A stretch of DNA of 64,000 nt, taken from positions 1,224,691-1,288,690 of the forward strand of contig OZ251518.1 in the NCBI GenBank assembly GCA_965242965.1. Direction: 5' to 3'. The number at the start of each line of letters is the position of its first letter. Position 1 is the first letter of the stretch. This DNA is from Candidatus Poribacteria bacterium (lineage in GTDB: Bacteria; Poribacteria; WGA-4E; WGA-3G). Positions 8,132 through 30,948 of this stretch are shown here, in pieces. The position numbers and the translations under genes were made by a program. The notes beneath the pieces were generated by a model. It made no database searches. It was not told the DNA's origin and saw nothing but the letters and a program-made list of their open reading frames with translations.

Positions 8132-8755
8132 ATGAGGGGGTTTCATAACTCGTTGTAAAATGTCAGGAGATGAGGTATCCTAGCATGAAGAACCAACAAC
8201 ATTTTAGGCGACATCCCGTGAAGTTTCCTGACATACATTAGTATATCACATTGCTTTTTTCTTTGCTAGTTGATTTTTTTTGCCATCCAGAACCCATCCC
8301 GGCCCCCGCGCGACGGTAAAAAAAACGTGCTGCTTACCGTAGGGCGAGGGCCTGTCCCTCGCCATGCCTAGGTCGGAACGAGAAACGGCCTTGGCCAGTG
8401 GACGATTTTCGCGCAGGTCGAACGATCGCGGGGGACAGGCCCCCGCGCTACGGTTTGCAAGGCCGTCTCCGTTTTACCGTAGGGCGAGGGCCTGTCCCTC
8501 GCCGTGCCTCGATCGGGAGGGAAATGGCCTTAGTTGGCGTGCGTTTTTCGCGCGGGTCGGGCGATCGCGGGGGACAGGCCCCCGCGCTACGGGCCAGGAA
8601 GGGGTTCTCCTCGCTATGCACCGTTCGGGATCAGGCGCTCCCGAACTACGGTCTCCAGCTCCAATCTTGCGAATCGTGATAATCGTGTAAATCCTGCTCC
8701 TCTCTGGCTAATCCTGGAAATCTTGAAAATCCTGCTCAAAATCCTGCTCATCATT
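8132..8755. repeat. second copy of the composite repeat block
   Basis: Same head segment, hairpin units and aatcctgctc tail as 5885-7040. Confidence 0.85.
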
Positions 8756-9461: not shown

Positions 9462-9775
9462 GAGGGACATCCTTGTCCCGATAAGAACGGTCTCTTTCAC
9501 CGTAGAGGGCCCTCGCAGGTTTTCCTCGCCATGCAGCGATCACGGGGGCATTGTATCGTGGTTAAAGAAACGTTAATCCGGCCTGTCCCTCGCCATGCAA
9601 TGATCGCGGGGGACAGGCCCCCGCGCTACGGTACTAAGAACGGTCGTTTTCACCGTAGGGCGAGGGCCTGTCCCTCGCCATGCAATGATCGCGGGCGGGC
9701 ATTGTATCGTGCAGCGATCGCGGGGGACAGGCCCCCGCGCTACGAATACGAAAAATCGGGACAGGGCGGTTTTTT
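9457..9775. repeat. REP hairpin cluster
   Basis: ggtaggagggacatccttgtcccgat plus several gatcgcgggggacaggcccccgcgctac and gtagggcgagggcctgtccctcgcc units. Confidence 0.85.
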
Positions 9776-10655: not shown

Positions 10656-10930
10656 CAGGGTGTTTCATAAATCCGTTTCGGTAGTTATTCCCCCTTGGGC
10701 AGCGAATACGGATAGAAAAGCGGGGGGCGCATCGGGCCACCTCTGTAGTTCGGGATCGCCCGATCCCGAACGGGTCAGGATCAGGCGATCCTGACCTACA
10801 GGAGTGATGAGGTTTGATAGCAAAACGCATGGCGAGGGCCTGTCCCTCGCCCTACGGGAAGGGACGGCGTTTTTTTCACCGCAGCGCGGGGCCTGTCCCC
10901 GCGACGTTGAGCGATTTATGAAACACCCTC
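10656..10930. mobile_element. MITE-like element with 18-bp TIRs and a 9-bp target duplication
   Basis: Left TIR cagggtgtttcataaatc (10656-10673). Right TIR gatttatgaaacaccctc (10913-10930). Flanks are aattatcct and aattatctt. The interior consists of GTAG hairpins. Confidence 0.75.
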
Positions 10931-10995
10931 AATTATCTTCAGTAGTTTGGGCTCGCCTGAGCCCGAACAGTGAAACCGATGTTCAAGGAAACATT

Positions 10996-12030
10996 ATGGA
11001 AAACACCCGAAAATCGTTAGTCAGTTTAATGGTTTTGGTGCTGCTGTTATTCTGTGGGAGCACCGTTGTCAATGCCCAAACCCCGGAGAAGATTGCCGAA
11101 AAAGCGTTGGGCTCCACGGTGATTTTGACAATGCAACACGCCGATGGTAAAGGTTCATTGGGCAGTGGGTTTTTCGTTGCAGATGGGCAGATTGCCACTA
11201 ACTATCACGTTATCAAAGGGGCTGTGAAGGGCACCGCGAAACTGGTCGGTGGGGGAGCAGCCTTTAATATTGAAGGGCATACCGCTATTGATGAAGAACG
11301 CGATTTAGCAGTATTAAAAGTCACGACGCTTCGCGCGCCGCCCCTTTCGCTTGGCGATAGCGACACCGTTAAAGTTGGCGAAACTGTCTACGCCGTAGGT
11401 AACCCACGAGGATTGGAAGGCACGTTCTCGCAGGGTATCATTAGTAGCATCCGGCATGAAGGGAATACGGCGGTGCGTGGCAAGGTCCTCCAGATTACTG
11501 CACCGATTTCTCCGGGAAGCAGCGGCGGTGCAGTGCTAAACAGCAACGGAAAAGTCATTGGCATCGCTGTCGCGACTATCGTTAACGGACAGAATCTCAA
11601 TTTCGCTATTCCCTCAAACTATCTTAAAGCACTGCTTGTGCAGGCTGGGGCAGCGAAATCTTTGGCAGCGGACGCGCCCTCTGACGTGCAACGCTTCTTG
11701 TTAGAGCTGTTTATCCTGGGCGTATCTGCCTTCATTGTCATACAGATTTTACCACTCGCAAAAGTTAAAGGGGGTTCAACAACGTTGGGGGTTTCCATCG
11801 TCTTTGGGCTCCTCCAAACCCTCTTGTCAGGAATCCTAACGCTCTTTGTCGTGCCGGTGATAATTCTAGCGTTAGGGCTTGCAGACATCGTCATTAATGC
11901 CGTGCTGCTCTGGTTTACGAATAAACTGTTTCGTGGGTTTGAAATGAACGGATTTTTCAAAACCATTTTCACGGCGGTGCTCATTGCTGGCGTTGAAAGG
12001 GCGTTAAATTGGCTCATCGCCGGTGCTTAA
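10996..12030 (+). CDS. trypsin-like serine protease fused to a C-terminal DUF360/holin-family-4-like membrane domain
   Basis: Signal peptide, then GSGFFV...TNYHV (His), DLAVLKV (Asp) and GSSGGAV (Ser). The C-terminal ~110 aa, ILALGLADIVINAVLLWFTNKLFRGFEMNGFFKTIF, resembles PF04020 from memory. Start set at MENTRK. Confidence 0.75.
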   Translation: MENTRKSLVSLMVLVLLLFCGSTVVNAQTPEKIAEKALGSTVILTMQHADGKGSLGSGFFVADGQIATNYHVIKGAVKGTAKLVGGGAAFNIEGHTAIDEERDLAVLKVTTLRAPPLSLGDSDTVKVGETVYAVGNPRGLEGTFSQGIISSIRHEGNTAVRGKVLQITAPISPGSSGGAVLNSNGKVIGIAVATIVNGQNLNFAIPSNYLKALLVQAGAAKSLAADAPSDVQRFLLELFILGVSAFIVIQILPLAKVKGGSTTLGVSIVFGLLQTLLSGILTLFVVPVIILALGLADIVINAVLLWFTNKLFRGFEMNGFFKTIFTAVLIAGVERALNWLIAGA

Positions 12031-14138: not shown

Positions 14139-14500
14139 ATTCCCCTCTGTAGTTTGAGATCGCCTGTTTCCTAAATTCCCCTCTGTAGTTTGAGATCGCC
14201 TGATCTCAAATAGGTAGGGATCGGGCGATCCCTACCTACAGATAGACTTTGGCCCGTAGCGCGGGGGCCTGTCCCCCGCGAGCGTCTCGGTTACCGTAGC
14301 GCGGGGGCCTGTCCCCCGCAATCGTTACATGGCGAGGGACAGGCCCCGGTTCAGCGTAGGCATAGCGCGCACGACTCTCCCCGCGATCGGTGCATGGCGA
14401 GGGACAGGCCCTCGCCCTACGGTGAAACGGATGCCCAGAGCCCGTAGCGCGGGGCCTGTCCCCCGCGAACGTTGCCCTACGCTGCAAAACGGAGGCACTC
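14130..14500. repeat. 36-bp perfect tandem duplication of the rsgA 3' end plus half a hairpin, followed by a REP cluster
   Basis: gtttcctaaattcccctctgtagtttgagatcgcct at 14130-14165 and again at 14166-14201. GTAG hairpins continue to about 14500. Confidence 0.85.
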
Positions 14501-15482: not shown

Positions 15483-15840
15483 TCACATTCTATCGTAGGG
15501 CGAGGGCCCTCGGATGCCACACGCGCACGCGAGCGGGTTTCCCTCGCCATGCAGCGCTCGCGGGGGACAGGCCCCCGCGCTACGGGCTCTGGGCATCCGT
15601 TTCACCGTAGGGCGCGGGGTTTGCGATCCGTAGTTCGGGATCGCCTGATCCCGAACGGGCATCTGTTTCACCGAACGTTCGCGGGGGACAGGCCCCCGCG
15701 CTACGGCCTCGGAGCATCCGTTTTATCGTAGGGCGAGGGCCTGTCCCTCGCCATGCTGCAAGTGCCAGTTTTCTCTCTCTATAGGTAAGGATTGCCTAAT
15801 CCTTACCTGTTTGAGATCAGGCGATCTCAAACTACAGATG
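15483..15840. repeat. REP hairpin cluster
   Basis: Several GTAG-hairpin units, including taaggattgcctaatcctta and tttgagatcaggcgatctcaaactacag. Confidence 0.85.
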
Positions 15841-16836: not shown

Positions 16837-17307
16837 ATGAACCGATACCGAACTCTCTGCATCACTGTACTACTAGCAGCACTCGTCTGCTTCACAATCG
16901 GATGCCAGGCTGGGAAGAAGAATAGCGACGAAATCCCAAAGCCGCCGGAACCGAAATATCGCACCGACACCGTGCTGCTCATTGAATCCGATGGCTACGG
17001 CTATCTCGCGCGGGTGACAGAAGATACGCCGCCGGATGCAAAGGAAGTGCCAGTCAAATTCTTCTCCGCGGCACTTGAAAAGAAGGTTGGCAATGCTGTC
17101 GCGTCCGAGAACATTCTGACAGCCCGAGAGGAACCGCCAGATGGCTGGGCATCGCGCCCCGTGTCAATTGACTACTTCAACGGCATCACGTGGAAACACC
17201 AAATGAATGTGCTGGAGTTGGAGGACGGCTATCTCCTACCTGAAGAGGTCAAGGGCAAACGGCGTGTGGAATTCGCGAACGTCCGTGTCCCCATCGCCGT
17301 GCATTGA
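16837..17307 (+). CDS. lipoprotein carrying the shared C-terminal module (island gene 1)
   Basis: Lipobox CFTIGC. C-terminal ~115 aa: VLLIESDGYGYLARVTEDT...VKFF...GWASRP...YLLPEEVKGKRRVEFANVRVPIAVH. Confidence 0.85.
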   Translation: MNRYRTLCITVLLAALVCFTIGCQAGKKNSDEIPKPPEPKYRTDTVLLIESDGYGYLARVTEDTPPDAKEVPVKFFSAALEKKVGNAVASENILTAREEPPDGWASRPVSIDYFNGITWKHQMNVLELEDGYLLPEEVKGKRRVEFANVRVPIAVH

Positions 17308-17362: not shown

Positions 17363-18061
17363 ATGAACCGATATCAAATCATTTTCGCATTCACCGCTGT
17401 GTTGCTAGGGATTTTCCTCTGTTTCACAATCGGCTGTCAGCCGGACAAGAATAACGATGAAAAGCCGGTAGAAAAGCCGCCGGAACCACCACCGGAACCG
17501 CCGGAGGAACCACCGCCGGAGGAAAAGCCACCGGAACCACCGCCGGAGGAAAAGCCGCCGGAGGAAAAGCCACCGGAACCACCGCCGGAGGAAAAGCCGG
17601 AGGAACCACCGCCGGAGGAACCACCGGAGGAACCACCGCCGGAGGAACCACCGCCGGAGGAACCACCGCCGGAGGAAAAGCCACCGGAGGAAAAGCCACC
17701 GGAACCGCTCTACAAAACTGGTACCGTGCTGCTCATTGAATCCGATGACTACGGCTACCTTGCGCGGGTGACAGAAGATACACTGCCCGATGCAACGGAA
17801 GTGCCAGTCAAATTTTTCTCGGCGGAGGTCCGGAAGAAAGCCGGGGACACCGTCAAGCCAGAGGATATTCTAAGGATTCGAGAGGAACCCCCAGATGGCT
17901 GGGCATCGCGCCCCATCGCCTTGGAGTACTTTGATGGTGCCACTTGGAAGCATCAAATGGATGTGCTTGAGTTGAAGGACGGCTATCTCCTACCTGAAGG
18001 AGTCAAAGGAGAGCGGCGGGTGGAATTCGCGAATGTCCGCGTCCCCATCGCCGTGCATTGA
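17363..18061 (+). CDS. lipoprotein with a Pro/Glu-rich repeat linker plus the shared C-terminal module (island gene 2)
   Basis: AAGGAGA Shine-Dalgarno and lipobox CFTIGC. About 80 aa of (PPEE/PPEEK)n. The C-terminal module is close to that of gene 1. Confidence 0.85.
   Translation: MNRYQIIFAFTAVLLGIFLCFTIGCQPDKNNDEKPVEKPPEPPPEPPEEPPPEEKPPEPPPEEKPPEEKPPEPPPEEKPEEPPPEEPPEEPPPEEPPPEEPPPEEKPPEEKPPEPLYKTGTVLLIESDDYGYLARVTEDTLPDATEVPVKFFSAEVRKKAGDTVKPEDILRIREEPPDGWASRPIALEYFDGATWKHQMDVLELKDGYLLPEGVKGERRVEFANVRVPIAVH
17466..17706 (+). repeat. in-frame tandem DNA repeat encoding the PE-rich linker
   Basis: Reiterated ccaccgccggaggaa(aag)cc units. The antisense track ORF 17424-17699 is an artefact of this repeat. 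Confidence 0.9.
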
Positions 18062-18077
18062 ATAGGAGAAAACAACG

Positions 18078-19745
18078 ATGCACCTTGATAAATACCGCTA
18101 CCAACGTTTGGCAGCATCACCGACGTTACTTTTGATAGCACTCGCTATCGCTATCGTGCTCAGCGGTGCCTTCGCGGCGACTGCAGACGCACAGACGGTG
18201 CACGCGCTACTCGTTATCATGGACGATGACCTGGACATCGCGATCAGCGTCGGGCAAAACCGTAAGCGCGTGAGGAACTTCTTCGACCGCCTCCCCGGCA
18301 CGAAACTTGAAATCTACAGTGCTGAGGACATGAGAAAAGCGAACGAACTCAGGCCGCAGCATATCCTTGATTGGATCCAGCGGTGTCCCGCTGGCGCGCA
18401 AGACACTATCTTTGTTTACTACAGTGGCCATGGATACAGCGACGACCTCCACAAACGGCACTACCTCAGCCTCCGCCTCCACAATCCCGCGTTTTCGGTG
18501 AGGCGGAGCGATCTCGCAGACGCGCTCAAAAAGAAACCGTGCCGCTTGAAGATGCTGGTCACTGATGCATGTAGCAACTTTTTGGACACGCAACTTGCTG
18601 CGAGCGTGAAACAATATGCCGCCTTGCAATCCAAAGCGCAACTCTATGCCAAGAATCTCTTCCTCCAGCATGAAGGATTCCTTGACATCAACGCCGCATC
18701 ACCTGGGCATTTTGCACTCGGCAGCAACGACATCGGCGGGTTCTTTACCACTGCGCTCATCACGAGCAGCTTCACCGCCGAATCAGACACAAACGGCGAC
18801 CGGTTCCTCTCTTGGAAAGAAGTCTTCGCCAAGTGTAAAACCGAAACGGAGAATCTGTTCCAGCAGGCACTCCCCGAAATTCGGAGCAACCCAACAGTCT
18901 TCCTACAAATGGAAGAAGCTAGACAGACAACCCAAGTGCCGCACAATTACGAACCGCTACCAACGCGCAGCGGGACTACGGCACCGAGACTTCCCACAAC
19001 TGCCGCAAAAATTGTTGGCAACGATGGCGCAGAAATGGTGCTCATCCCCGCCGGCGAGTTTCAGATGGGCAGCAACAACGGCGATGAAGATGAAAAACCC
19101 GTGCATACCGTCTACGTGGATGCGTTCTACATGGATGTCTACGAGGTGACGAACGCGCAGTTCAAGGCGTTTGTCGATGTCAATCCGCAGTGGCAGAAAG
19201 ACCAGATTTCAACAAACTACCACGATGGAGATTACCTCAATCCCTGGTCTGGTAACAGTTATCCGGTTGGAAAAGGTAACCACCCCGTGACGTATGTGAG
19301 TTGGTATGCGGCGATGGCGTATGCGGAGTGGGCAGGGAAACGGCTGCCGACGGAGGCGGAGTGGGAGAAAGCGGCGCGCGGCGGGTTGCAAGGACAGAAG
19401 TATCCGTGGGGCAATGGGATTGATGCAGGTCAGGCAAATTACAGACAGAATCTTGGGGGCACCACGGCGGTTGGGAGTTATGGTGCGAATGGGTATGGGT
19501 TATATGATATGGCTGGCAATGTGTGGGAGTGGTGTGTTGATACGTATAAAGCGGATTTCTATAAGGTTGCGCCGCCTCGGAATCCTGCTTATCTGACAGA
19601 TCAGACCAACACCTCGCGCGTGTTGCGCGGCGGCAGTTGGTTCAATACAGCGCGGTACTTGCGCGTCGCCGATCGCGGCAGGGGTTCGCCGACGGGCTCG
19701 TACTCGTACGACGGTTTTCGTTGCGCGAGGGCTGTTACGCCTTGA
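18078..19745 (+). CDS. exported caspase-like (C14-type His-Cys) domain fused to a non-catalytic FGE/SUMF1-fold domain (island gene 3)
   Basis: Signal peptide ending ATADA|QTVHALLVIMDDD. FVYYSGHG and RLKMLVTDACS. C-terminal HPVTYVSWYAAMAYAEWAGKRLPTEAEWEKAARGG, YGLYDMAGNVWEW, RGGSW and GFRCAR. Confidence 0.85.
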   Translation: MHLDKYRYQRLAASPTLLLIALAIAIVLSGAFAATADAQTVHALLVIMDDDLDIAISVGQNRKRVRNFFDRLPGTKLEIYSAEDMRKANELRPQHILDWIQRCPAGAQDTIFVYYSGHGYSDDLHKRHYLSLRLHNPAFSVRRSDLADALKKKPCRLKMLVTDACSNFLDTQLAASVKQYAALQSKAQLYAKNLFLQHEGFLDINAASPGHFALGSNDIGGFFTTALITSSFTAESDTNGDRFLSWKEVFAKCKTETENLFQQALPEIRSNPTVFLQMEEARQTTQVPHNYEPLPTRSGTTAPRLPTTAAKIVGNDGAEMVLIPAGEFQMGSNNGDEDEKPVHTVYVDAFYMDVYEVTNAQFKAFVDVNPQWQKDQISTNYHDGDYLNPWSGNSYPVGKGNHPVTYVSWYAAMAYAEWAGKRLPTEAEWEKAARGGLQGQKYPWGNGIDAGQANYRQNLGGTTAVGSYGANGYGLYDMAGNVWEWCVDTYKADFYKVAPPRNPAYLTDQTNTSRVLRGGSWFNTARYLRVADRGRGSPTGSYSYDGFRCARAVTP

Positions 19746-19950: not shown

Positions 19951-20296
19951 GAGGGTGTTTCATAAATCGTTCAACGTCGCGGTGACAGGCCCCTGCTACG
20001 GTGAAGAAACGCCTCCTTTTCACGTAGGGCGAGGGCCTGTCCCTCGCCATGCACAGGTCTGCGCAGCAACCATCCGTAGTCTCTGGGCTGCGGGCGTTTT
20101 CCGCAGCGGGTGAGAGATCGCGGGGGACAGGCCCCCGCGCTACGGGAAACAACGTCTCTTAGGTCCGTAGGACCTTAATGTCTATAGTTCGCTCGCCTGC
20201 GAAGAACCTTAATAAACGGCACGACACGTATTTCTATAGACATGTAGGTCCTACGGACCTAAAGAGGCATCCCTAACGGAGTTATGAAACACCCTC
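19951..20296. mobile_element. MITE-like element with 18-bp TIRs and a perfect 8-bp target duplication (AGTTAACC)
   Basis: Left TIR gagggtgtttcataaatc (19951-19968). Right TIR gagttatgaaacaccctc (20279-20296). agttaacc occurs at 19943-19950 and 20297-20304. Orientation is inverted relative to the 10656 copy. Confidence 0.8.
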
Positions 20297-20541: not shown

Positions 20542-21744
20542 TTGAGATGCAACCTTAGCAAGCGAATTCCGCTTGTTGTTTTAGCCGTGCTATTCTGCAT
20601 CGCCGCGCTGTTTATCGGCCGTGGACATGCAGATCCAGCCACTTCCGAGGAAGGGACTGCCTCTCTGGAAAGAGATACTGCGCAGTCCGGAACATCTATG
20701 GGAATTGTTTCGGAGATGTTTTTCCGTCCCTATCCGCACCGCGCTGATATAGTGATTGACGCGGGCGATTTGGGTCGCTACCGCTTCTCGGAAGATACAG
20801 AGCTCCGCCGCATTCCGCGCGATGTGGACATCCGGCGGGAACTCGTTCAGTTGCTCAACGATGTCGAAAAAGAGGTAGGGCAGCCAGTTCTGATTCTCAC
20901 CGGCTACCGTTCCGAGCAACATCAAATCTATCTTTGGGCGAAATGGCTTAAAGATAACCGTGCCAAGGTCCGCGCTCTCAACCGGGAAGATCACCGGACA
21001 TGGGCGACGTGGATTGAGGCGAGTCAGGAGCTGCGGGGATGTCCCCCGCTTGCAACGAAACACCAGACTGGGGACGCTGTCACTTTTTATTGGAAAACCT
21101 TGTCTCTAGACTCGCGGAGAACACGCAAAGAGCTCACTGAGCTTATCCGCGAGTTAGGGGGAGAGGAGCAGTATTCCGCGCGTGACCGGCGGGAGTTCAA
21201 TATTCCGCGCGGCGATAACGCGCTGTTTGAGGTAACAGCGTACGAGGAAGACGACAATATCAGTCTTGACAATCCGCAGGGATATCCCTGCTTCCGTGTC
21301 GTCTACCGTCCCAGTGAAACGCCGCGAGCACCGCGCAGTCGATATGTCGGTGTCCGCGACCGCGACGACAGACGCGACACAACACCGCGCACCTATAAAG
21401 AAGGTGACATCCTCCTCATCGCCGTAGACGATTACAACTACCTCGGCCGAGTCACGGAGGATACGCGCCTGCGGGACGAGTTTGTTAAAGTTCAGTTCTT
21501 CGTTGAAGAGATCGACGATGAACTCGGTGACGAAGTCTCTATTGATGAAATCTCAGGCGTTCGCCCTAAGCCGGAAGCCGGTTGGGGTAAAGCGAAAGTC
21601 ATTTTGGAGTACTACAACGGGAAGGAATGGAAGTATTCCAAGGATGTGTTGGTGTTTAGAGACTACTACCGTCTTCCGCGCTCGGTTCGCGGTGAGTATA
21701 TATTGAAATTTAATCAGGTTCGATTTCCTATTGCTGTCCACTAG
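20542..21744 (+). CDS. exported protein: degenerate VanY/M15B-like domain plus the shared C-terminal module (island gene 4)
   Basis: TTG start with AAGGAGG 8 nt upstream, then a signal peptide. LILTGYRSEQHQIYLW and ATKHQTGDAVTF resemble the M15B SGYRSxxxQ and SEHQTGxAxD motifs, but the Asp is replaced. C-terminus ILLIAVDDYNYLGRVTEDT...FNQVRFPIAVH. Confidence 0.8.
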   Translation: MRCNLSKRIPLVVLAVLFCIAALFIGRGHADPATSEEGTASLERDTAQSGTSMGIVSEMFFRPYPHRADIVIDAGDLGRYRFSEDTELRRIPRDVDIRRELVQLLNDVEKEVGQPVLILTGYRSEQHQIYLWAKWLKDNRAKVRALNREDHRTWATWIEASQELRGCPPLATKHQTGDAVTFYWKTLSLDSRRTRKELTELIRELGGEEQYSARDRREFNIPRGDNALFEVTAYEEDDNISLDNPQGYPCFRVVYRPSETPRAPRSRYVGVRDRDDRRDTTPRTYKEGDILLIAVDDYNYLGRVTEDTRLRDEFVKVQFFVEEIDDELGDEVSIDEISGVRPKPEAGWGKAKVILEYYNGKEWKYSKDVLVFRDYYRLPRSVRGEYILKFNQVRFPIAVH

Positions 21745-21784: not shown

Positions 21785-23194
21785 ATGTTTGTTTCAAAAT
21801 TTCGGCTTATCGCCGTATTAGTGTTTGCGCTGGGCACTGTGATGCTCACGGCTCCTACGGTGGAGGCGCAAACTGTCCATGCCTTACTCGTGATTATGGA
21901 TGCCGATAAACGCCTCGGCGGGGGAATGCAAGTCAACCAGAAGAAAGTGGAAGACTTACTCTCACAGGTGAAACGGGTCTATCGGGTTGACACGGATGTC
22001 TATCTGAGTTCCCGTGGCGAAACCACACCGCGCAATGTGCTGCGATGGGTTCAAGACCTGCGCCCCGCGCGTGACGATGTAGTGTTTATCTACTACGGTG
22101 GACACGGTGGGATGGTTAGCAAGACAGATCGGCGGACTTATCTCTACCTAACGAACGGCGAACTGTACCGGACAGATCTCGAGGCTGCGGTTAAATCGCA
22201 TTCTTGCCGTTTGAAAATTATCGTTACTGATGCTTGTAGCAGTTATCCGGTGCGCCAGTCGCAGGCACAGGTGCAAGCTTTTGGTGTATCCACTGTTTCC
22301 TCTCGTCAAAACGCGATGATCAAAAATCTGTTTGGACAACATGAGGGGCTCCTGCACGTCAACGGAGCGAGTGAAGGCCAATACGGCTGGAGCGATGCCT
22401 CCAGAAATGGGCAGGGAAGTTTTTTTACTCGCAGCTTCATCACCGCTATTGATCACAAAAATTATAAGGGCGGGGATGGGTTCGTTGAATGGAAAGAGGT
22501 TTTTGAACTAGCGCGAAGGACCACGCAAGAAGTTTTTCGCCAAGTGAAGGATGGTGGAGGGCTTGAAGGGGCTTTGCAAGAACCTCATATCGACTCGGCA
22601 CAGGTAACCCTGCAAACTCCTCAGGCGTATGCTCTGGCTGGCCGCCTGCACGATGGCCCTAGCGACATTGATGACCCGCTTTGGGAACTAGAAAATCCGC
22701 GGCAGAGGATTGCAGTGTCAATGTCCCCCAGTCAGACCAGATACAGAGCGGGGGACTATCTTGATTTAACGCTGCGGGCGGACGACGACTGCTACATTAC
22801 GCTGCTGAATTGGGACTCACACGGCAACTTTACTAAGTTGTTCCCCAACAAATATCAGGAGGATAACTTCATCCGCGGGGGACGTACCTATCACTTTCCA
22901 CCTGAGGATGCTGACTTTGAACTTCACCTCCCTGGCCCCGTAGGCAAGGAGATGCTGAAGTTAATCGTTGTCACTTCTTCCCGTGCCAACGACAAAATTA
23001 ACCAAATCCTCGATCGTCCAAGGACAGAACCTTTTGCCACGCAGAGTTCGCGCGCCAAGGATGGGCAAACTCTGATTCTGCCTCAAATTATTGCAACCGT
23101 TGAGGCTGAAACAAGGATTGTTGAAGTCTTAAAGAGACTGCCCTCTAGCGAATGGGCGGAAGTTCATTTTGATGTAGATATTGAGCGGCGGTGA
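21785..23194 (+). CDS. exported caspase-like domain plus DUF4384-like domain (island gene 5)
   Basis: Signal peptide ending VEA|QTVHALLVIMDAD. FIYYGGHG and RLKIIVTDACS. DUF4384-like YRAGDYLDLTLRADDDCYITLLNWDSHGNFTKLFPN. Confidence 0.85.
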   Translation: MFVSKFRLIAVLVFALGTVMLTAPTVEAQTVHALLVIMDADKRLGGGMQVNQKKVEDLLSQVKRVYRVDTDVYLSSRGETTPRNVLRWVQDLRPARDDVVFIYYGGHGGMVSKTDRRTYLYLTNGELYRTDLEAAVKSHSCRLKIIVTDACSSYPVRQSQAQVQAFGVSTVSSRQNAMIKNLFGQHEGLLHVNGASEGQYGWSDASRNGQGSFFTRSFITAIDHKNYKGGDGFVEWKEVFELARRTTQEVFRQVKDGGGLEGALQEPHIDSAQVTLQTPQAYALAGRLHDGPSDIDDPLWELENPRQRIAVSMSPSQTRYRAGDYLDLTLRADDDCYITLLNWDSHGNFTKLFPNKYQEDNFIRGGRTYHFPPEDADFELHLPGPVGKEMLKLIVVTSSRANDKINQILDRPRTEPFATQSSRAKDGQTLILPQIIATVEAETRIVEVLKRLPSSEWAEVHFDVDIERR

Positions 23195-23295: not shown

Positions 23296-24708
23296 ATGAT
23301 GAAACATGCACGAGGCTGCCGCAACGTTAGCAGACTCATACTACCCGGGGCCTGGATGTGTTGCGGAGTGCTACTGCTTGCACTCGTAGCAATGCCGCTG
23401 ACGGCCCATACGCGGACGCTCCACGCGTTGCTTGTAGTGATAGATACAGACACGAGTCTCGGCACCGCCATGAAAGCCAACCAGACGCAGGTGGAGCGAC
23501 TGCTGAAGACAATAAACGACGCGGGGGAACTCCGGTTGGAACTGCAGACGCAACTCAGTTCACAAAATGAGGCGACAGTTGCGCAAATTCAAGGATGGCT
23601 TGATGCAATCCGTCCCGGTGAAGACGATGTCCTCTTCGTCTACTTCAGTGGATCCGGCGGCAGTGATAAAGAGGGACAGTTCCTGTCTCTGCAAGATAGG
23701 CTGTGCTATCAATCCGATCTCGCGCAATGGGTGCGAAATGCAGGCGAGTGCAGGCTTAAACTCCTGATTACCGATGCATGCAAAGCCGCGGAGTCCTTAC
23801 CGGTACAAGCATCGCCGCGCGCCCGTTGGCTTGACATCGCGAATTTGTTTCAGACCCCGGCAGGCTTCCTCCATATCACGAGCGCGACTGCGGAGGAATA
23901 CGGATGGGCGGACGTACAAAAGGGTGGACTTTTCACGAACGCACTGATGCACGCGCTCGCTGAAGGATTTACGTCTTGGACAGAAGTTTTTGACGCGGCA
24001 CGGCAAGAAACCGGTGACCTGTTTCTGCGCGCATCAGCCACATTCTCTGAAGAGATGGAGGCACCCTTAAAGAGGAAAGGCATTGAGAGCCAAACGCCGA
24101 AGGCGTATGCGCTGCCCAATTGGGACCGCGACCCGCCAGCAAACCGGGATGAAATACCACCAACGCTGTGGGAGCTCCCCAATCCGGAAACCGCGTTCAA
24201 ACTCTCCATGGAGACCGGCAAAACGGTATACCAAATTAAGGACTACCTCACCGTGGCAGGCGAAGTCACCGACGATGCATACCTCATCCTCTTGAATTGG
24301 GATGATTTCGGGAGGTTAACCGTCCTTTTTCCCTTTCCGGACACCGCATCGGAGGGTAATCGGCTAAGTGCTGGCAGTTACCATATTCCAGACCTGAATC
24401 CCAACTTTGAATTACAAATGTCGGGCCCTGCAGGGACCGAGCGACTTAAAATTCTAGCACTCCGGCGCGCCGCTGACAGCAACGCTATTATGGATTTCTT
24501 CACGTCGCCCGCGGGAAGCCGCTCATGGAAAGTGCTAGAAGGACAGCAGCGAGTAGCAGTTGAGGAGGAAATTTTGGAGCGTCTCCACAGCATAGACCCG
24601 AAAGACTGGGCAGAAGCACACCGAGAAGTGGAATTACGAGAGCGAAAACGGCCAGCACCGCGTATTACGCCAAAGGATAAGCACTCCGAGAAAACGGGAG
24701 GGAAGTGA
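23296..24708 (+). CDS. exported caspase-like domain with His replaced by Ser, plus DUF4384-like domain (island gene 6)
   Basis: TLHALLVVIDTD. FVYFSGSGG replaces GHG. RLKLLITDACK is retained. DUF4384-like YQIKDYLTVAGEVTDDAYLILLNWDDFGRLTVLFPF. Confidence 0.85.
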   Translation: MMKHARGCRNVSRLILPGAWMCCGVLLLALVAMPLTAHTRTLHALLVVIDTDTSLGTAMKANQTQVERLLKTINDAGELRLELQTQLSSQNEATVAQIQGWLDAIRPGEDDVLFVYFSGSGGSDKEGQFLSLQDRLCYQSDLAQWVRNAGECRLKLLITDACKAAESLPVQASPRARWLDIANLFQTPAGFLHITSATAEEYGWADVQKGGLFTNALMHALAEGFTSWTEVFDAARQETGDLFLRASATFSEEMEAPLKRKGIESQTPKAYALPNWDRDPPANRDEIPPTLWELPNPETAFKLSMETGKTVYQIKDYLTVAGEVTDDAYLILLNWDDFGRLTVLFPFPDTASEGNRLSAGSYHIPDLNPNFELQMSGPAGTERLKILALRRAADSNAIMDFFTSPAGSRSWKVLEGQQRVAVEEEILERLHSIDPKDWAEAHREVELRERKRPAPRITPKDKHSEKTGGK

Positions 24709-24780: not shown

Positions 24781-26427
24781 ATGACAGCAAGACATCACCG
24801 GCTCGTGGGCAGCCTGCTCATCATTTTGATGTGCATCGGCATCCTCGGCACGGCGTTTTCTGTCCAAGCGCAAGAGGTGCACGCACTCATCGTGCTACAA
24901 GGCGCAGACGTGAAAATCCGCGCCAGCGTGGCGAAAAATAAAGTGCTCATGCAGCAATTGATGGGGCAGGTGTCGCAGTATTGCAACGTCCATCTTACCG
25001 TGATGCATGTCGATGACAGGTTCACGAGCACTGTCACATCAATGACACTCTCCGGAGGCGCGCCGGCGAACATCAGCGAGCGAAGGATAGGGCGAATCCG
25101 CGGCGAGGATGTGAACCGTTGGCTCAACACGGTGACTCCCACGTCGGCAGACACCGTTTTCATCTACTATAATGGCCACGGAAGTATAGAGGAAAATGAG
25201 CATCTGCTGAGCTTCACTGAAGACAATAAGGTATCTCGTGCAGGGTTGCGGGCGCGATTGGAACAAAAACCGGCGCGCCTGAAAATGCTCATTACCGATA
25301 CGTGTAGCACGCTCGTTGATACGCCAGAAGTCGTTGCAGCTAGTGCTACCTATGCAAACGTAACAGGGAAAGGAGAACGCTACACGCAACATCTGTTTCT
25401 ACAACACGAAGGCATGCTTGACATCACGGCGGCGGAACGCGGCGATTATGCCTGGGGCCATCAGGATATCGGCGGATTCTTCACGGCTGCGCTGATGCAG
25501 AGCTGCAATGAGCCGGCGGATGTTTCGCTAAAAGATGGGTTTCTGACGTGGGACGAGGTATTCGCGCAATGCATAGTGGAGACACAACATATCTTCACGC
25601 AGACTCTGGCAGAATCGGAATTCGGCCCGGAACATTTGCTGGATAACGGCACGCCGAAACGGCAGACACCTGTCGCGTATTCTCCTTTGCCGCAGCGGCT
25701 CGCGCATTATGCTGAACCGAGAACACGAACGCCAAAGCCGGAACGGACAACACCGCAACACCCGCATGGCCAGATTACCTGGGAGAAAGACGGTGTCGAA
25801 ATGGTGCTTATCCCCGAAGGCGAATTCCGGATGGGAAGCACTGCCCGTGGTGGTTCTGGAAAACCCGCGTATCCTGTCTACGTGGACGCGTTTTATATCG
25901 ATACACACGAGGTAACGCTTCGCCAATACGACGCGTTTCTGCAGGCCACCGGGCACCGGCCTCTGCCTGAAGAATACGAAGAATTTTGCCCAACGCCTGA
26001 TTATCCCGTAGTTTTCGTCTCGTGGGAGGATGCAATGGCGTACGCAAAATGGGCAGGCAAGCGGCTGCCGACAGAAGCGGAATGGGAGAAAGCAGCGCGC
26101 GGTGGGTTAGTCGGCCAAAAATACCCATGGGGCAATGCCAAACCGAACGGGACACAGTGCAATCTAGACCGGTTGCAAGATGGACATCTATACGCCGCAC
26201 CTGTCCGGAGTTATCCGCCTAACAAATACGGCATATACGACATGGTAGGGAACGTCTGGGAGTGGTGCGCGGATGAAAACAGGCCGAGGACACGCATCCT
26301 CCGCGGTGGAAGTTGGCGCAACCCGGAAATCCGTATCCCCTGGGTTACGGAATCGCTGCAGGTGCCCCCGGAAACGCTCGGGCACACTATTGGATTTCGA
26401 TGCGTTGTCAGTGCCGACGCGCATTAA
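24781..26427 (+). CDS. exported caspase-like domain plus non-catalytic FGE-fold domain (island gene 7)
   Basis: GGAGGA Shine-Dalgarno. VQA|QEVHALIVLQGAD, FIYYNGHG, RLKMLITDTCS. C-terminal VFVSWEDAMAYAKWAGKRLPTEAEWEKAARGG, YGIYDMVGNVWEW, RGGSW, GFRCV. Confidence 0.85.
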   Translation: MTARHHRLVGSLLIILMCIGILGTAFSVQAQEVHALIVLQGADVKIRASVAKNKVLMQQLMGQVSQYCNVHLTVMHVDDRFTSTVTSMTLSGGAPANISERRIGRIRGEDVNRWLNTVTPTSADTVFIYYNGHGSIEENEHLLSFTEDNKVSRAGLRARLEQKPARLKMLITDTCSTLVDTPEVVAASATYANVTGKGERYTQHLFLQHEGMLDITAAERGDYAWGHQDIGGFFTAALMQSCNEPADVSLKDGFLTWDEVFAQCIVETQHIFTQTLAESEFGPEHLLDNGTPKRQTPVAYSPLPQRLAHYAEPRTRTPKPERTTPQHPHGQITWEKDGVEMVLIPEGEFRMGSTARGGSGKPAYPVYVDAFYIDTHEVTLRQYDAFLQATGHRPLPEEYEEFCPTPDYPVVFVSWEDAMAYAKWAGKRLPTEAEWEKAARGGLVGQKYPWGNAKPNGTQCNLDRLQDGHLYAAPVRSYPPNKYGIYDMVGNVWEWCADENRPRTRILRGGSWRNPEIRIPWVTESLQVPPETLGHTIGFRCVVSADAH

Positions 26428-26433
26428 ATAAAC

Positions 26434-26718
26434 GAGGGGGTTTCATAAATCAATGTCTTCCCGGTAGGAGAGACCTCCTGGTCTCGATGGCTCCTCGGTA
26501 GGGGGAGACCTCGGGTCTCGATGTTCCCGTAGCGCGGGGGCCTGTCCCCCGCGAGCTCCATCGTCACGATGGGTGTTGCTGCCGTTGTAGTTTGTGCTCG
26601 CCTGATCACAAACGGGTCAAGATCGAGCAATCCTGACCTATAGGGGTGATGCAGCCTGACAGCAAAACGCATGGCGAGGGTTTCCCCCGCGACGTTGAAC
26701 AATTTATGAAACACCCTC
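26434..26718. mobile_element. MITE-like element (TIRs present, target duplication degenerate)
   Basis: gagggggtttcataaatc (26434-26451) and aatttatgaaacaccctc (26701-26718). The interior is GTAG hairpins. Flanks aaataaac and aagttagc match at only 5 of 8 positions. Confidence 0.65.
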
Positions 26719-26746: not shown

Positions 26747-28420
26747 ATGAAAACTAATTTGCCGCTGCGCATCGCAGCTTTGCTTATCATTCTCGGATGC
26801 ATCGTCTGCTTCGGCACCGCTACCGCCGAAGCACAGAAGATGCATGCACTGCTCATTCTGCTGCAGAATGACAAAAAAGGCATTCGAGACACCGTAGACG
26901 TGAACCAGCAGACATGGGTGGACGAACTGCTGCCCCTCGTTTCAAAACATTGTGAGGTAAAGGTGACGCTCATGAAATCGTTGCCGGGACTCGCTGGGGA
27001 ATTAACCGAAATAACCCTCAATGATAGCACGGTAACGGCACGGAAGGTTGAAAACCTCCGCAACATTGTTAACCCCGCGCAAGTCACCGGGTGGCTTGAC
27101 AACGTGCAAACGGGCCCCAGGGATACCCTGTTCGTCTACTTCAATGGCCACGGGGGGATGGACAGATACGGCACCCATCGGCTCCTCTTGGACCCGAGAG
27201 GAAAGAATTATGTCACCCGCGAGCAAATTATGACGCGCCTCAAAGCGAAATCGGCGCGCCTGAAGATGCTCATCACCGACACCTGTAGTGAGATGATTGA
27301 CATGGACGTGTCGGCTCAACCTCAGACACAGAACTTCGCACGTATCAAGAGCGCGCGATACTATGCCAAAAACCTGTTCCTAGATCACGCCGGGCTCCTC
27401 GATCTCACGGCGACCTCTCCAGGCAAACTCGCCTACGGCAACGCTACAATCGGCAACTATTTCACGCATGCCATAGCGGAGAGTCTTGTCCCAGAATCAG
27501 ACACATCAGGGGATGACTTCCTCTCCTGGCAGGAGGTTTTCGCCTCCGCCACAAAGACGACGCGAACGTTGTGTGAGCAGGTACCACTGTTCAAAGCGAC
27601 AAACACCGTCCAAATCCCCATCGCGCACGCGATGCCGAAGAAAGAACGCCTCAAGATTGGCGTGCAGGACAGCGCAGGAATGGTGCTCATCCCCGCCGGC
27701 AAGTTTCAGATGGGCAGCAACGACGGTTATGAAAATGAAAAGCCGGTGCATACTGTCTCCGTGGATGCGTTCTATATGGATGTCTATGAGGTGACGAACG
27801 CGCAGTTCAAGGCGTTTGTCGATGCAAATCCACAGTGGCGGAAAGACCAGATTCCAACAAACTACCACGATGGAGACTACCTCAAGCCCTGGTCTGGTAA
27901 CAGTTATCCGGTTGGAAAAGGTAACCACCCCGTGACTTTTGTAAGTTGGTATGCGGCGATGGCGTATGCGGAGTGGGCAGGGAAACGGCTGCCGACGGAG
28001 GCGGAGTGGGAGAAAGCGGCGCGCGGCGGGTTGCAAGGACAGAAGTATCCGTGGGGCAATGGGATTGATGCAGGTCAGGCAAATTACGGCAGGAATCTTG
28101 GGGGCACCACGGAGGTTGGGAGTTATGGTGCGAATGGGTATGGGTTATATGATATGTCAGGGAATGTGTGGGAGTGGTGTGTTGATGCGTATAAGGCGGA
28201 TTTCTATGCGCGTTCATCGCCCCAAAATCCGCTTGCAGGGAAGATGACCTTAAGGGAAGTGAGTGCTAATTACCAAAACGTGACAGGCTCGCGCGTGTTG
28301 CGCGGCGGCGGTTGGCGCACTACCGCGCAGGACTTGCGCGTCGCCAATCGCAACGGGAGTTCGCCGGCGAGCACGCACGCCGACATCGGTTTTCGTTGCG
28401 CGAGGGCTGTTACGCCTTGA
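26747..28420 (+). CDS. exported caspase-like domain plus non-catalytic FGE-fold domain (island gene 8)
   Basis: AEA|QKMHALLILLQND, FVYFNGHG, RLKMLITDTCS. The FGE-fold domain is near-identical at DNA level to those of genes 3 and 13. Confidence 0.85.
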   Translation: MKTNLPLRIAALLIILGCIVCFGTATAEAQKMHALLILLQNDKKGIRDTVDVNQQTWVDELLPLVSKHCEVKVTLMKSLPGLAGELTEITLNDSTVTARKVENLRNIVNPAQVTGWLDNVQTGPRDTLFVYFNGHGGMDRYGTHRLLLDPRGKNYVTREQIMTRLKAKSARLKMLITDTCSEMIDMDVSAQPQTQNFARIKSARYYAKNLFLDHAGLLDLTATSPGKLAYGNATIGNYFTHAIAESLVPESDTSGDDFLSWQEVFASATKTTRTLCEQVPLFKATNTVQIPIAHAMPKKERLKIGVQDSAGMVLIPAGKFQMGSNDGYENEKPVHTVSVDAFYMDVYEVTNAQFKAFVDANPQWRKDQIPTNYHDGDYLKPWSGNSYPVGKGNHPVTFVSWYAAMAYAEWAGKRLPTEAEWEKAARGGLQGQKYPWGNGIDAGQANYGRNLGGTTEVGSYGANGYGLYDMSGNVWEWCVDAYKADFYARSSPQNPLAGKMTLREVSANYQNVTGSRVLRGGGWRTTAQDLRVANRNGSSPASTHADIGFRCARAVTP

Positions 28421-28686
28421 GTCTTAACTCCCTTACCCCTTCTGATCGGTTTACCGATCAGACCGTTATGAAAGGGGGTATATATTAAGACCTAACGGCC
28501 GGCCCGGTGCCTCTTTTTTCATCGAGAAACCCGCTTACTATGCGGGTTCATGCAGGAACAACTTTTGTGTCTTTTCTACCGGTTGTTGCGGTCTTCCAGT
28601 CAGCGACAACCCCCGTCGGGAGAGCTTGCCTTAAAGCGGCAAGCCGAATCAAACTAATTGGGTCCACTATCAAAAGGAGAAACATC

Positions 28687-29607
28687 ATGAAACCCCAAAA
28701 CACCCTGCACCTTGCAGGATTACTACTACTAATACTACTGAGCTGCGCGGCACTGCTAGGGCCGGCGGCTTCTGCCGAGGCACATGAAGTGCACGCGCTC
28801 CTCATCATCCTCGGCGATGACATGAATATTCGCGCCGGTGTTGAGAAAAACGAGAGCCATCTCAAGGAGTTGATGGGGCGCGTCTCGGCGCACTGCCCTG
28901 TCCAACTCACCGTCCTGAAATCCGAAGACGAGAGCACGGTGACGACGATGTCCCTCACCGATGGGAAGGCAAGCGCCATTCAAGAAACGCAGCAGGAGGG
29001 GCCCATCACGAGCGGCCAGGTTGAAGCGTGGCTCAACGCCGTGGACATCAATCCCGATGATACCGTGCTCATCTACTACACCGGATTCGGTCTGATATCC
29101 GCCAGCGGTAGCGGCGATGATTTGGCCCGCGCCGACTTGAGCGCGGCATTGAACGAACATCCTGCGCGCTTGAAAATGCTGATTACGGATATGGAGGGCC
29201 CCATTGTTGATGAGTCTGACACCCCTGCGCTCCAGACATTTGGGTCTATAGCACCAAAGACGCCAGAGACAAGGGGCTCCTTCCTCAAACACCTCTTTCT
29301 TGAGTATAAAGGGATGCTTGACATTACCGCCGCGTCCTCTGGAGAGTATGCGTTTATGAACACAAAAGGCACAGATGCCGGTGGATTCTTCACGCAGGCT
29401 CTGATTAAGAGTATGGACTTTGCAGCTGAGGCGAACGCGGATATGTTCCTCACTCTCAATTCGTGGGCGGAGGTGTTTGCACTCGCGCGGAAGAGCGTTC
29501 AAGAGAGGTTTGCGCAGGCGCGCAACCAGGGCTCACTACGACGTGTTGAGCAGACAACACAGACTCCGGTCGCCTATTCGCTCCCGGAACGCGTGCTGGA
29601 ACCGTAA
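28687..29607 (+). CDS. exported pseudo-caspase: caspase-like fold with both dyad residues replaced, no C-terminal domain (island gene 9)
   Basis: AAGGAGA Shine-Dalgarno. AEA|HEVHALLIILGDD. LIYYTGFG (His to Phe). RLKMLITDMEG (Cys to Glu). GGFFTQALI is retained. Confidence 0.8.
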   Translation: MKPQNTLHLAGLLLLILLSCAALLGPAASAEAHEVHALLIILGDDMNIRAGVEKNESHLKELMGRVSAHCPVQLTVLKSEDESTVTTMSLTDGKASAIQETQQEGPITSGQVEAWLNAVDINPDDTVLIYYTGFGLISASGSGDDLARADLSAALNEHPARLKMLITDMEGPIVDESDTPALQTFGSIAPKTPETRGSFLKHLFLEYKGMLDITAASSGEYAFMNTKGTDAGGFFTQALIKSMDFAAEANADMFLTLNSWAEVFALARKSVQERFAQARNQGSLRRVEQTTQTPVAYSLPERVLEP

Positions 29608-29673: not shown

Positions 29674-30948
29674 ATGAAAATCGAACGATACTACCACACG
29701 ATAGGCATCCTCTGCGTTCCAGTGATGCTTATCCTTTTAACGCAAGGATGCTTCTTCTTTAAGAAGGAGCCCAAAATTGAACCCCCTGAACCCATAGAAA
29801 GGATTCAGGAGGAGCTGCCCGAGTTGACTGCTTCGCTTGATGTCACCAGCACTCCAAGCGGGGCCACCGTGTTTCTAGATGGAGAGCCGGTCGGCACGAC
29901 ACCGCTGGAACACGTTGTAGAACTTGGGGGTTTGCCACGTAAAACGGTAGAGGTTGGTGTGGCATTCCAGGGGAGTCAACCGAGCCTGCGCCAGGTCACC
30001 CTGGAGCGAGGCAAAGGCATGATGATTGAAATTGTGCAAGCGAACCCAGAGACCTCAGTTGAACAATTCGACGACCTCATTGAACAATTCAACGAGGTCA
30101 AGGAGCAGTTGTGGGACATTAGCAGTCCGAATGCGGATTTCACCGTGGCATGGCAAGCGGACAGAACGGCCTACGAGGTAGAGGATACTATCACCTTTGA
30201 TATCACCCTCACCGCCGGTGCACACCTTGTTATTTTGAGTCGGGATACTTCGGACGCGCTCACACTCCTTCATCCGAATGCCTTTGAGACATCAAACGAT
30301 TGGTGGCGGGCCGGCAAGCACTCCTATCCCGGGCCCGATGCTGATTTTGAGATCGAACTTCAGGCCCCAGGCACTGAAAAGTTTCAGCTGCTGGCATTCC
30401 GAAACGCTGAGAACAGCCAAACTGTTGCCGACATCTTAGATACACAGGCAGCTACGGCTGAAGAAAGAATCTTGGATTACCTTCAGGGCATGAACCCGAC
30501 GGACTGGGCAGCAGCACGACTGGAAATCCCGGTCCGCGAACCAGAACGCCCGGTGCCGGATGAAGAACTCCTTGATGTCCCCACCGGGAACATCGTCTAC
30601 ATCAAGCACGGAAATTACATGTATCTGGCAAAAGTGTTTGACACGCAGCACGGTGAAGCCGGCACCACGGCGGTGGATATTTTTAACGAGGAACTTCGCG
30701 AGGAACTCGGTGACACTATCAACAATGAACTTGTGCTGGATAAACGGACAGAACCGGCGCAAGGCTGGGGTAACCGGCGTGTGATGCTCAGCTTCTATCG
30801 AGATGGTGCATGGACATTTACTACCGATGTCGTGATCCACGCGACCTATTATGAGTTGCCTGCGCGTATTGATGGGGAGCGGGTCCAAGGTTCGCGTATC
30901 GTCAGTTTCGGCGAAGTCCGATTTCCGATTCCGGTCTCCTTTCGGTAG
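29674..30948 (+). CDS. lipoprotein: PEGA-like, DUF4384-like and shared C-terminal module (island gene 10)
   Basis: GAGGAGG Shine-Dalgarno and lipobox LLTQGC. LDVTSTPSGATVFLDGEPVGTTPL (PEGA). YEVEDTITFDITLTAGAHLVILSRDTSDALTLLHPN (DUF4384-like). C-terminus IVYIKHGNYMYLAKVFDT...FGEVRFPIPVSFR. Confidence 0.85.
   Translation: MKIERYYHTIGILCVPVMLILLTQGCFFFKKEPKIEPPEPIERIQEELPELTASLDVTSTPSGATVFLDGEPVGTTPLEHVVELGGLPRKTVEVGVAFQGSQPSLRQVTLERGKGMMIEIVQANPETSVEQFDDLIEQFNEVKEQLWDISSPNADFTVAWQADRTAYEVEDTITFDITLTAGAHLVILSRDTSDALTLLHPNAFETSNDWWRAGKHSYPGPDADFEIELQAPGTEKFQLLAFRNAENSQTVADILDTQAATAEERILDYLQGMNPTDWAAARLEIPVREPERPVPDEELLDVPTGNIVYIKHGNYMYLAKVFDTQHGEAGTTAVDIFNEELREELGDTINNELVLDKRTEPAQGWGNRRVMLSFYRDGAWTFTTDVVIHATYYELPARIDGERVQGSRIVSFGEVRFPIPVSFR

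Follow-up and report, generated by a model that had tools for sequence, protein, structure and literature searches.

We analysed a 64,000-nucleotide stretch (hereafter the window) of contig OZ251518.1 from a Candidatus Poribacteria bacterium (assembly GCA_965242965.1, positions 1,224,691 to 1,288,690 of the forward strand), in which four open reading frames (ORFs) of the same strand (16837-17307, 17363-18061, 20542-21744 and 29674-30948) have in common a homologous C-terminal module of about 117 amino acids (aa). An initial annotation made from the sequence had proposed such a module on four segments, attached to four different N-terminal contexts (a bare lipoprotein, a Pro/Glu-linker lipoprotein, a VanY-like domain, and PEGA plus DUF4384). 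The module was borne out by translations, alignment, BLASTP and a hidden Markov model (HMM) search of the window, and the four contexts were found on the carriers, designated W1 to W4:

W1, 16837..17307, plus strand: 156-aa lipoprotein with signal peptide, lipobox FTIGC, a tether of about 15 aa and the module at 16954-17304
W2, 17363..18061, plus strand: 232-aa lipoprotein with an acidic Pro/Glu linker of about 90 aa, then the module at 17708-18058
W3, 20542..21744, plus strand: 400-aa exported protein with a VanY/LAS-fold domain (20542-21390) whose metal site is degenerate, and the module at 21391-21741
W4, 29674..30948, plus strand: 424-aa lipoprotein with lipobox LTQGC, PEGA, DUF4384 and the module at 30574-30945

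The other three modules are 78, 41 and 32 % identical to the first, with 25 invariant columns in the four-copy alignment, and pairwise BLASTP of the modules gave E = 5e-28 (copy 1 vs 3), 2e-17 (1 vs 4) and 8e-22 (3 vs 4), a similarity that, at the sequence level, is far beyond chance. An HMM built from the four copies and run against the six-frame translation of the window retrieved no fifth copy (next match E = 2.7). W1 and W2 end in VRVPIAVH, W3 in VRFPIAVH and W4 in VRFPIPVSFR, so the statement that three of the four end in PIAVH was correct for the window. Other details needed correction. The second segment, first written as 17707-18061, is shifted by one base against the reading frame, and its translation runs into stops; the correct module is 17708-18058. 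Among the literal motifs that had been listed, GW[AG], Y.LP and VR[FV]PI[AP]V occur in all four copies, but the rest hold only approximately: [ILV]x[LV][IY]I..x.Y.YL[AG][RK]V matches none of the segments literally, 'V..FF or IFN' matches copy 4 only (via IFN), DV reads NV in copy 1, and Y[FY].G..W fails in copy 4. The end motif lies within three residues of the stop in the window, as had been noted, but family-wide 0-19 residues trail the module, and the motif is therefore not tied to a free C-terminus.

The W1 module matched the HMM at E = 6e-59, and its lipobox was identified by sequence reading and by pattern; its orthologue P0001 is 94 % identical. W2 starts at the ATG at 17363, and its Pro/Glu linker is coded by imperfect tandem repeats (period 15/42) at 17477-17706. 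The linker varies in length among the orthologues P0002, P0003, P0006 and P0027, which have 182-227 aa in total versus the 232 aa of W2, and tether length appears, from these sequences, to be fast-evolving. W4 most likely starts at the ATG at 29674, because the database protein P0036 is identical to it from that Met; Pfam assigns it PEGA (1e-7) and DUF4384 (2e-10), and its module has a 5-residue insertion.

The N-terminal domain of W3 scored under the cut-off against Pfam VanY (E = 0.006), and its AlphaFold2 model (predicted local distance difference test, pLDDT, 80.7) matched VanY, VanXY, LdcB, Ply500 and ChiX in Foldseek (E = 5e-4, prob 1.0), which indicates a LAS fold. We examined the residues expected of an M15/VanY enzyme, namely the zinc ligands H-x6-D and a second His together with the catalytic Glu (SxHxxGxAxD ... 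ExWH). In nine aligned orthologues, the only invariant elements were SGYRS and one His, the first; the Asp position of HxxxxxxD is T, N, D, E or S, no ExWH equivalent was found, and a PDB profile search with the domain found no M15 chain. We therefore rejected an active VanY enzyme in W3, whose fold is supported but whose metal and catalytic residues are not conserved; on its sequence, the domain is likely to be a non-catalytic stem-peptide-binding domain or an otherwise altered one.

The module had been described as belonging to no named family, and our searches agreed: Pfam (E up to 1), NCBIfam and PADLOC contained no match to it, and its profile matched none of the PDB sequences at E up to 10. 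It is nevertheless conserved beyond the source genome, with 26 relatives in a word-indexed search of 5.8 billion protein clusters and 40 representatives in an exhaustive HMM search of 1.84 billion proteins, 39 of the 40 below 1e-10 and with E-values that break off sharply at the edge of the family. When 185,579 species genomes were scanned by pattern with a 6-sequence alignment, the module turned up in two, both Candidatus Poribacteria metagenome-assembled genomes; so far, the family has been seen only in Poribacteria-type clusters and on unassigned metagenome contigs. Since the genome scan was pattern-based and yielded these two Poribacteria loci only, the taxonomic range is under-sampled. 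A viral contig scan gave no module relative, and a search of the BFVD structure library returned nothing informative. Judged by these sequence searches, the family is real, tiny, sharply bounded and unrecorded.

Consistently with the earlier guess of one or two small Tudor/SH3-like beta-barrels, a confident AlphaFold2 model of the module (pLDDT 93.4, predicted template modelling score 0.82, 27-sequence alignment) predicts that it folds like a tandem Tudor domain, as two packed SH3-like barrels. In the model, strands 7-12, 15-21, 31-36, 48-50 and 54-57 make up barrel 1 and strands 69-75, 80-89, 92-94 and 110-113 barrel 2, with one short helix in addition, and the VRFPI motif forms the last strand of the fold. 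The best Foldseek match in the PDB was the tandem Tudor domain of 53BP1 (TM-score 0.53-0.55 over about 118-126 columns, prob up to 1.0), followed among other matches by plant tandem Agenet domains (AGDP1, ADCP1), the UHRF1 tandem Tudor domain (TTD), SGF29 and FMRP. Both barrels of 53BP1 (PDB 2G3R, 3LH0) and of AGDP1/ADCP1 align together with the model, at 14-16 % identity, a root-mean-square deviation of about 5 Å and a Foldseek E-value of 8e-3; those proteins are nuclear methyl-lysine readers, whereas the module is exported and bacterial. No SH3b structure appeared among the top 50 Foldseek PDB matches, the SH3_3, SH3_4 and GW profiles of Pfam did not match the module, and the Tudor-clan (CL0049) profiles gave no match at E up to 1. 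A resemblance to GW modules, suggested by the invariant G64-W65 pair, was considered and set aside as superficial, having neither profile nor structure support.

Across 61 aligned modules, no variation was seen at Y17, G46, G64, W65, W80 and R111, and conservation reaches at least 95 % at F37, R58, P61 and Y93. The invariant or near-invariant aromatic residues comprise Y15, Y17 and F37 in barrel 1 and W65, Y74, W80 and Y93 in barrel 2. Within modelled barrel 2, Y74 stands at the end of strand 1, W80 at the start of strand 2 and Y93 in strand 3, positions where cage residues usually sit, and these three would make a candidate cage. A 53BP1-type cage is not evident from the sequence of barrel 1: Y17 lies opposite the 53BP1 cage residue Y1502 in a non-significant hhalign segment, and the W1495 position would, by extrapolation, be Ile.

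Throughout the family the module is the last domain of its chain, followed by 0-19 variable polar residues, and a signal peptide or lipobox was found in all four window carriers and in nearly all relatives. The carriers are of seven types. The majority (type i) consist of a signal peptide or lipobox, a short tether and the module; in type ii a lipobox is followed by a long acidic Pro-rich linker; types iii and iv place the module after a VanY-like domain or after combinations of VanY-like and DUF4384 domains; type v carries PEGA and/or DUF4384; and type vi has a caspase-like domain with or without DUF4384, including one chain that is both VanY-like and caspase-like. Type vii is represented by P0044 only, with an unassigned beta-rich N-terminal domain of about 200 aa. 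This protein (locus L008, 9965-11152) starts with a signal peptide, continues with the beta-type domain, which is rich in Gly, Ser and Tyr, and reaches the module through a linker of KKVEExxVETPP repeats; the N-terminal domain had no Pfam match and no homologues. The layout resembles that of OmpA, a possible reading that would put the module in the periplasm.

The statement that the module never sits on the same chain as a caspase-like domain holds in the window but not in the family, where at least nine relatives combine a caspase-like domain (with DUF4384 in some) and the module. We aligned 24 caspase-like domains, nine with the module and 15 without. In all nine module-bearing domains a catalytic residue was missing: the His, with Q, F, K or S in its place, or the Cys, with G or D in its place. 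At least three kinds of substitution are involved. By contrast, both dyad residues were kept in 12 of the 15 module-free domains (hypergeometric P about 2e-4, for sequences that are not independent). Judging from this alignment, the module occurs only on chains that lack an intact catalytic site. No chain combining an FGE-sulfatase domain with the module was found in the window or the family. The modules cluster by carrier type and not by genome, that of W4 grouping with modules fused to pseudo-caspase-DUF4384 proteins of other genomes, and this clustering across genomes indicates that they are old paralogous subtypes that have long been kept.

In nine of ten distinct loci, the module gene adjoins caspase-like genes of the same clade. 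The Poribacteria-type loci L001/L006, L002, L003, L004, L007 and L009 have a similar layout of a short lipoprotein, a long-linker lipoprotein, caspase-like genes and a pseudo-caspase-module gene, to which L002 and L003 add a VanY-like-module gene, and the window cluster shares its gene order with the Poribacteria loci, in keeping with an origin in a related organism. Large clusters encode 3-4 module proteins each, and in the stretches covered 1-4 copies were seen per locus, all within one cluster; a single module gene was found in the covered sequence of L010 (8970 bases), L011 (20459 bases) and L005 (12.7 kb). L010 and L011 carry minimal cassettes, in which a module lipoprotein of 146 or 152 aa is followed, after 81-152 bp, by one caspase homologue of 379 aa. 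This homologue begins with a signal peptide, keeps both His and Cys and has transmembrane helices at its C-terminus; neither FGE nor VanY-like genes, nor a further module gene, lie near the cassettes. On this comparison of loci, the constant partner of the module is the exported caspase homologue clade and not the FGE fold. A specific link to FGE-fold proteins, which the initial annotation had entertained, is not supported: the minimal cassettes have no FGE gene, and FGE and module sit on separate chains.

Upstream of the first module gene, L003 (7252-8403), L004 (7493-8644) and L008 (6411-7562) each have, on the opposite strand, a 383-aa gene of the sigma-54-activator AAA+ type, and also an ORF of about 160 aa on the strand of the module gene. 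The window has neither, and a PhyH dioxygenase and RsgA stand upstream instead.

In the array of the window, the four module genes are interspersed among genes that encode eight caspase-like paralogs and six FGE-sulfatase domains. The catalytic His and Cys are kept in six of the eight paralogs, the other two being pseudo-enzymes by dyad alignment. The remaining genes of the array are:

18078..19745, plus strand: exported caspase-like (His/Cys intact) and FGE-sulfatase protein (Pfam, dyad alignment)
21785..23194, plus strand: exported caspase-like (His/Cys intact) and DUF4384 protein (Pfam, dyad alignment)
23296..24708, plus strand: pseudo-caspase, catalytic His replaced by Ser, with DUF4384 (Pfam, dyad alignment)
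24781-26427 and 26747-28420, plus strand: two genes for caspase-like (dyad intact) and FGE-sulfatase proteins (Pfam, dyad alignment)
28507..29607, plus strand: pseudo-caspase, His replaced by Phe and Cys by Glu, no other domain (tblastn, dyad alignment; no Pfam match)
31128-32264, plus strand: FGE-sulfatase-only protein (Pfam)
32364-34283 and 34407-36338, plus strand: two genes for caspase-like (dyad intact), PEGA and FGE-sulfatase proteins (Pfam, tblastn, dyad alignment)

The product of 18078..19745 is a presumed catalytic partner. Among the paralogs tried as queries, it was 21785..23194 that retrieved, with 37-40 % identity, the one caspase homologue of each minimal cassette. The position of 23296..24708 in the array is filled elsewhere by a pseudo-caspase-DUF4384 protein that carries the module, as seen from the gene order of L002 and L003.

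A Peptidase_M48 gene (37121-37987) closes the caspase/FGE array of the window; such a gene also adjoins FGE-sulfatase genes in the unrelated contig L005 (9954-10787), and it may be a conserved accessory gene. Outside the array, the ORF at 10804-12030 encodes a Trypsin_2 peptidase domain and, C-terminal to it, a four-helix membrane domain of the Phage_holin_4_2 family, and 41482-43056 and 43023-44759 (minus strand) are adjacent, slightly overlapping genes for class I tRNA synthetases of the Glu/Gln type, one resembling GluRS and the other GlnRS. An element of 26 nt that contains a hairpin, GCGGGGGACAGGCCCCCGCGCTACGG, with its variant GCGAGGGACAGGCCCTCGCCCTACGG, occurs at 46 sites of the window on both strands, against 0 expected, mostly within gaps separating large ORFs (e.g. 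6089-6878, 8337-8592, 9606-9745, 14254-14422, 15560-15706, 20120-20145, 26527-26552, 36803-37098, 38025-38317, 40826-41374, 54738-55406 and 60701-60937). By its sequence, the element is an interspersed repeat similar to repetitive extragenic palindromes or miniature inverted-repeat transposable elements (REP/MITE-like), and this repeat accounts for spurious small ORFs with 'AGDRPPRYG' peptides.

The explanation that we tentatively favour, and to which we would grant somewhat less than an even chance, is that the module serves non-catalytic partners of exported orthocaspases as a binding adaptor: an exported domain of the tandem Tudor/SH3-like kind that would bind proteins or peptides and by which these proteases would be tethered or regulated in the envelope. 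The module would be dedicated to a single clade of orthocaspases outside the cytoplasm (signal-peptide-bearing Peptidase_C14 homologues) and would mark the non-catalytic members of the system, that is, lipoproteins that anchor in the membrane and whose Pro/Glu tether is short or long, a VanY-fold protein that has degenerated, a PEGA-DUF4384 protein and, in other genomes, pseudo-caspases. It would dock these carriers onto the active caspase homologues or onto the caspases' site of action, and this docking would tether or regulate the proteases in the cell envelope. We infer that the module binds something, that its partner is the caspase system and that the outcome is tethering or regulation. 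A functional tie to the co-encoded caspase-like proteins is consistent with the gene linkage, the minimal cassettes and the fusion to pseudo-caspases only, and the module is probably a binding handle for partners of the caspase-like proteases. Also in favour of the explanation are the predicted fold, whose best matches are peptide-binding tandem domains, the subtypes kept across genomes, the export signals of the carriers, the loss of metal and catalytic residues in the VanY-fold carrier, and the invariant residues as candidates for a binding surface.

Lipoproteins of comparable build are known beside envelope enzymes: in E. coli, LpoB, which has a long disordered tether, and NlpI, acting with Prc, are outer-membrane lipoprotein adaptors or regulators of periplasmic enzymes. 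The likeness to the module proteins is one of layout (lipobox, flexible tether and small globular domain beside an envelope enzyme) and involves no homology. By this analogy, the short-tether W1 and the long-tether W2 would reach different depths of the periplasm.

Several observations weigh against the adaptor explanation. The Foldseek E-values behind the fold are weak (best 8e-3, none at or below 1e-3), and hhalign of the module against 53BP1 gave a probability of 2.2 %, that is, no sequence-level relation; on both accounts, ours is an assignment to a fold and not to a family. In L008, a DUF4384-PEGA-FGE gene is the neighbour of the module, and a caspase homologue was not detected within 10 kb. 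Given the narrow taxonomic sample, linkage could partly reflect the shared ancestry of one cluster, although mere inertia fits poorly with the minimal cassettes and with the shuffling of architectures. Finally, the carrier architectures are also expected for a cell-wall or matrix anchor.

In a more specific form, which we consider possible but on the unlikely side, the module would be a dedicated recognition handle of an envelope orthocaspase system: the active exported caspase homologues would bind it, possibly via its invariant Arg-containing C-terminal strand, and would thereby be tethered to the membrane at defined distances, regulated by pseudo-caspase or pseudo-peptidase partners, or directed to cleave them.

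The anchor just mentioned is the first alternative to be weighed. The module may bind a peptide or glycan of the murein or of the extracellular matrix and fix its carriers in the wall, without direct contact with the caspases, which we hold to be rather improbable. A predicted tandem barrel of the SH3 fold would suit that role, and its closest known kind are the secreted tandem chromo/Tudor-like domains of Kaur et al. 2018 (PMC5906684), whose commonest fusion partner is a caspase-like peptidase and for which binding of murein or matrix peptides was predicted. Like those domains, the module is exported, has a Tudor-type SH3-fold barrel in tandem, is associated with caspase-like peptidases and has a predicted binding role, and both co-occur with a domain of the carboxypeptidase-regulatory/PEGA type. 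Unlike them, it has no detectable sequence relation (it lacks any Tudor-clan Pfam match, and the HMM search that starts from it stops at 40 proteins, all of the same family) and it is a fixed two-barrel unit, always C-terminal and mostly on a bare lipoprotein. It is found only on chains without an intact catalytic site, a loss of the dyad in fused caspases that is not described in PMC5906684, and Poribacteria are not among the lineages treated there. The module is, moreover, a sequence orphan that has so far been seen only in Poribacteria-type clusters and on unassigned metagenome contigs.

The carriers themselves recall peptidoglycan binders, with a lipoprotein and tether or with a VanY-fold domain that keeps the SGYRS substrate-binding motif, and the build of P0044 (signal peptide, beta-rich domain, linker and module) points the same way, although its N-terminal domain, a possible outer-membrane barrel, had neither a Pfam match nor homologues. 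The SH3b domains of peptidoglycan hydrolases are likewise small C-terminal beta-barrels on exported proteins, including M15/VanY-fold enzymes, and bind stem peptides, but the module had no SH3b structure among its top 50 Foldseek matches and matched no SH3_3, SH3_4 or GW profile, its VanY-fold partner appears non-catalytic, and it is confined to clusters with caspase homologues. Moreover, one would expect to meet a generic wall anchor on enzymes that are active, whereas the module rides only on chains predicted to be inactive, and such an anchor would not be confined to one gene cluster or to 40 representatives among 1.84 billion proteins. The anchor also leaves unexplained the cassette of a bare module lipoprotein with one caspase homologue.

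To a homotypic assembly domain we would give only a small chance. Here the modules would bind each other, and the lipoprotein copies would nucleate a membrane scaffold that gathers the VanY-like, PEGA-DUF4384 and pseudo-caspase chains. The recurrence of the same domain at the same terminus of several side-by-side genes is the signature that defines effector-associated domains (EADs; PMC7159879), and EADs and Death-like adaptors (PMC7159879, PMC8195603) likewise place one small non-enzymatic domain across neighbouring genes, caspase-like ones included; FGE-sulfatase ('FGS') domains are present in EAD conflict systems too. With their 3-4 module proteins, the large clusters show the domain in at least two neighbouring proteins, but L005, L010 and L011 have a single module gene. 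The EAD systems are cytoplasmic and centred on a nucleoside triphosphatase (NTPase; vWA-MoxR, STAND, GTPases), and EADs are mostly alpha-helical, whereas the module arrays have no NTPase core gene of these kinds inside them and carry export signals throughout, and the module is exported and predicted to be all-beta, a different fold. The caspase homologues scored under the cut-off of NCBIfam caspase_w_EACC1. The module subtypes have diverged to about 30-40 % identity and separate by carrier, which fits distinct partners better than one self-association surface. In favour of assembly, the pseudo-caspase carriers could, by analogy with cFLIP, recruit active caspases by heterodimerisation.

It is similarly improbable, in our view, that the module is a substrate or pseudo-substrate, cut by Arg/Lys-specific orthocaspases at R58 or R111, or blocking them through these residues, so that the carriers would be targets, decoys or inhibitors. 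All 61 aligned modules have R111, which lies within the C-terminal V-R-[FVI]-P motif, and 59 of the 61 have R58, at the start of the inter-barrel loop. The gene pair of a small exported beta-protein and a protease resembles, by analogy, protease-inhibitor operons, among which staphostatin-staphopain and Inh-serralysin are familiar pairs, and the module is absent from chains whose dyad is intact, as it should be if a copy fused to an active enzyme would be cut by that enzyme or would block it. As for specificity, PMC6426788 describes orthocaspases as cleaving after basic residues. Neither Arg, however, is modelled in a flexible exposed loop: R58 belongs to a well-ordered block (residues 51-60, mean pLDDT 94) directly after strand 54-57, and R111 lies inside strand 110-113. 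Conservation also extends over the 117-aa fold as a whole, including many invariant aromatic residues, and thus exceeds what a cleavage site needs.

Highly improbable, lastly, is a C-terminal sorting signal read by secretion or attachment machinery in the manner of the type IX secretion system C-terminal domain (CTD) or of PEP-CTERM, as the initial annotation had also suggested: the module is always the last domain behind varied N-terminal 'cargo' and an N-terminal Sec or lipoprotein signal, but most family members are lipoproteins without cargo, the loci surveyed have 1-4 copies in one cluster, the motif is followed by a variable tail of 0-19 residues, which is neither a hydrophobic helix nor basic, the conserved neighbourhoods have no gene annotated as dedicated to sorting or secretion, and VRFPI is modelled as the last strand of a tandem barrel, not of a CTD sandwich.

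If the module is the dedicated recognition handle outlined above, no adaptor domain would have been described before it for bacterial caspase homologues outside the cytoplasm, and it would be the exported equivalent of death-fold and EAD adaptors. To our knowledge, the biology of orthocaspases is largely unknown, and almost nothing is known of the exported ones. Carriage of the module only on chains without catalytic residues points to regulation by pseudo-enzymes or adaptors, reminiscent of eukaryotic caspase control, where cFLIP regulates caspase-8. The two-gene cassette of a module lipoprotein and an intact membrane-anchored caspase homologue is small enough for direct experiments. As an exported, sequence-orphan domain with a predicted tandem Tudor-like fold, the module would also add to the argument that Tudor/chromo readers started as bacterial extracellular peptide binders. 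Poribacteria are described in the literature as sponge-associated bacteria, and expanded arrays of exported caspase and FGE-fold proteins, such as the eight caspase-like paralogs of the window, may matter for life inside the host.

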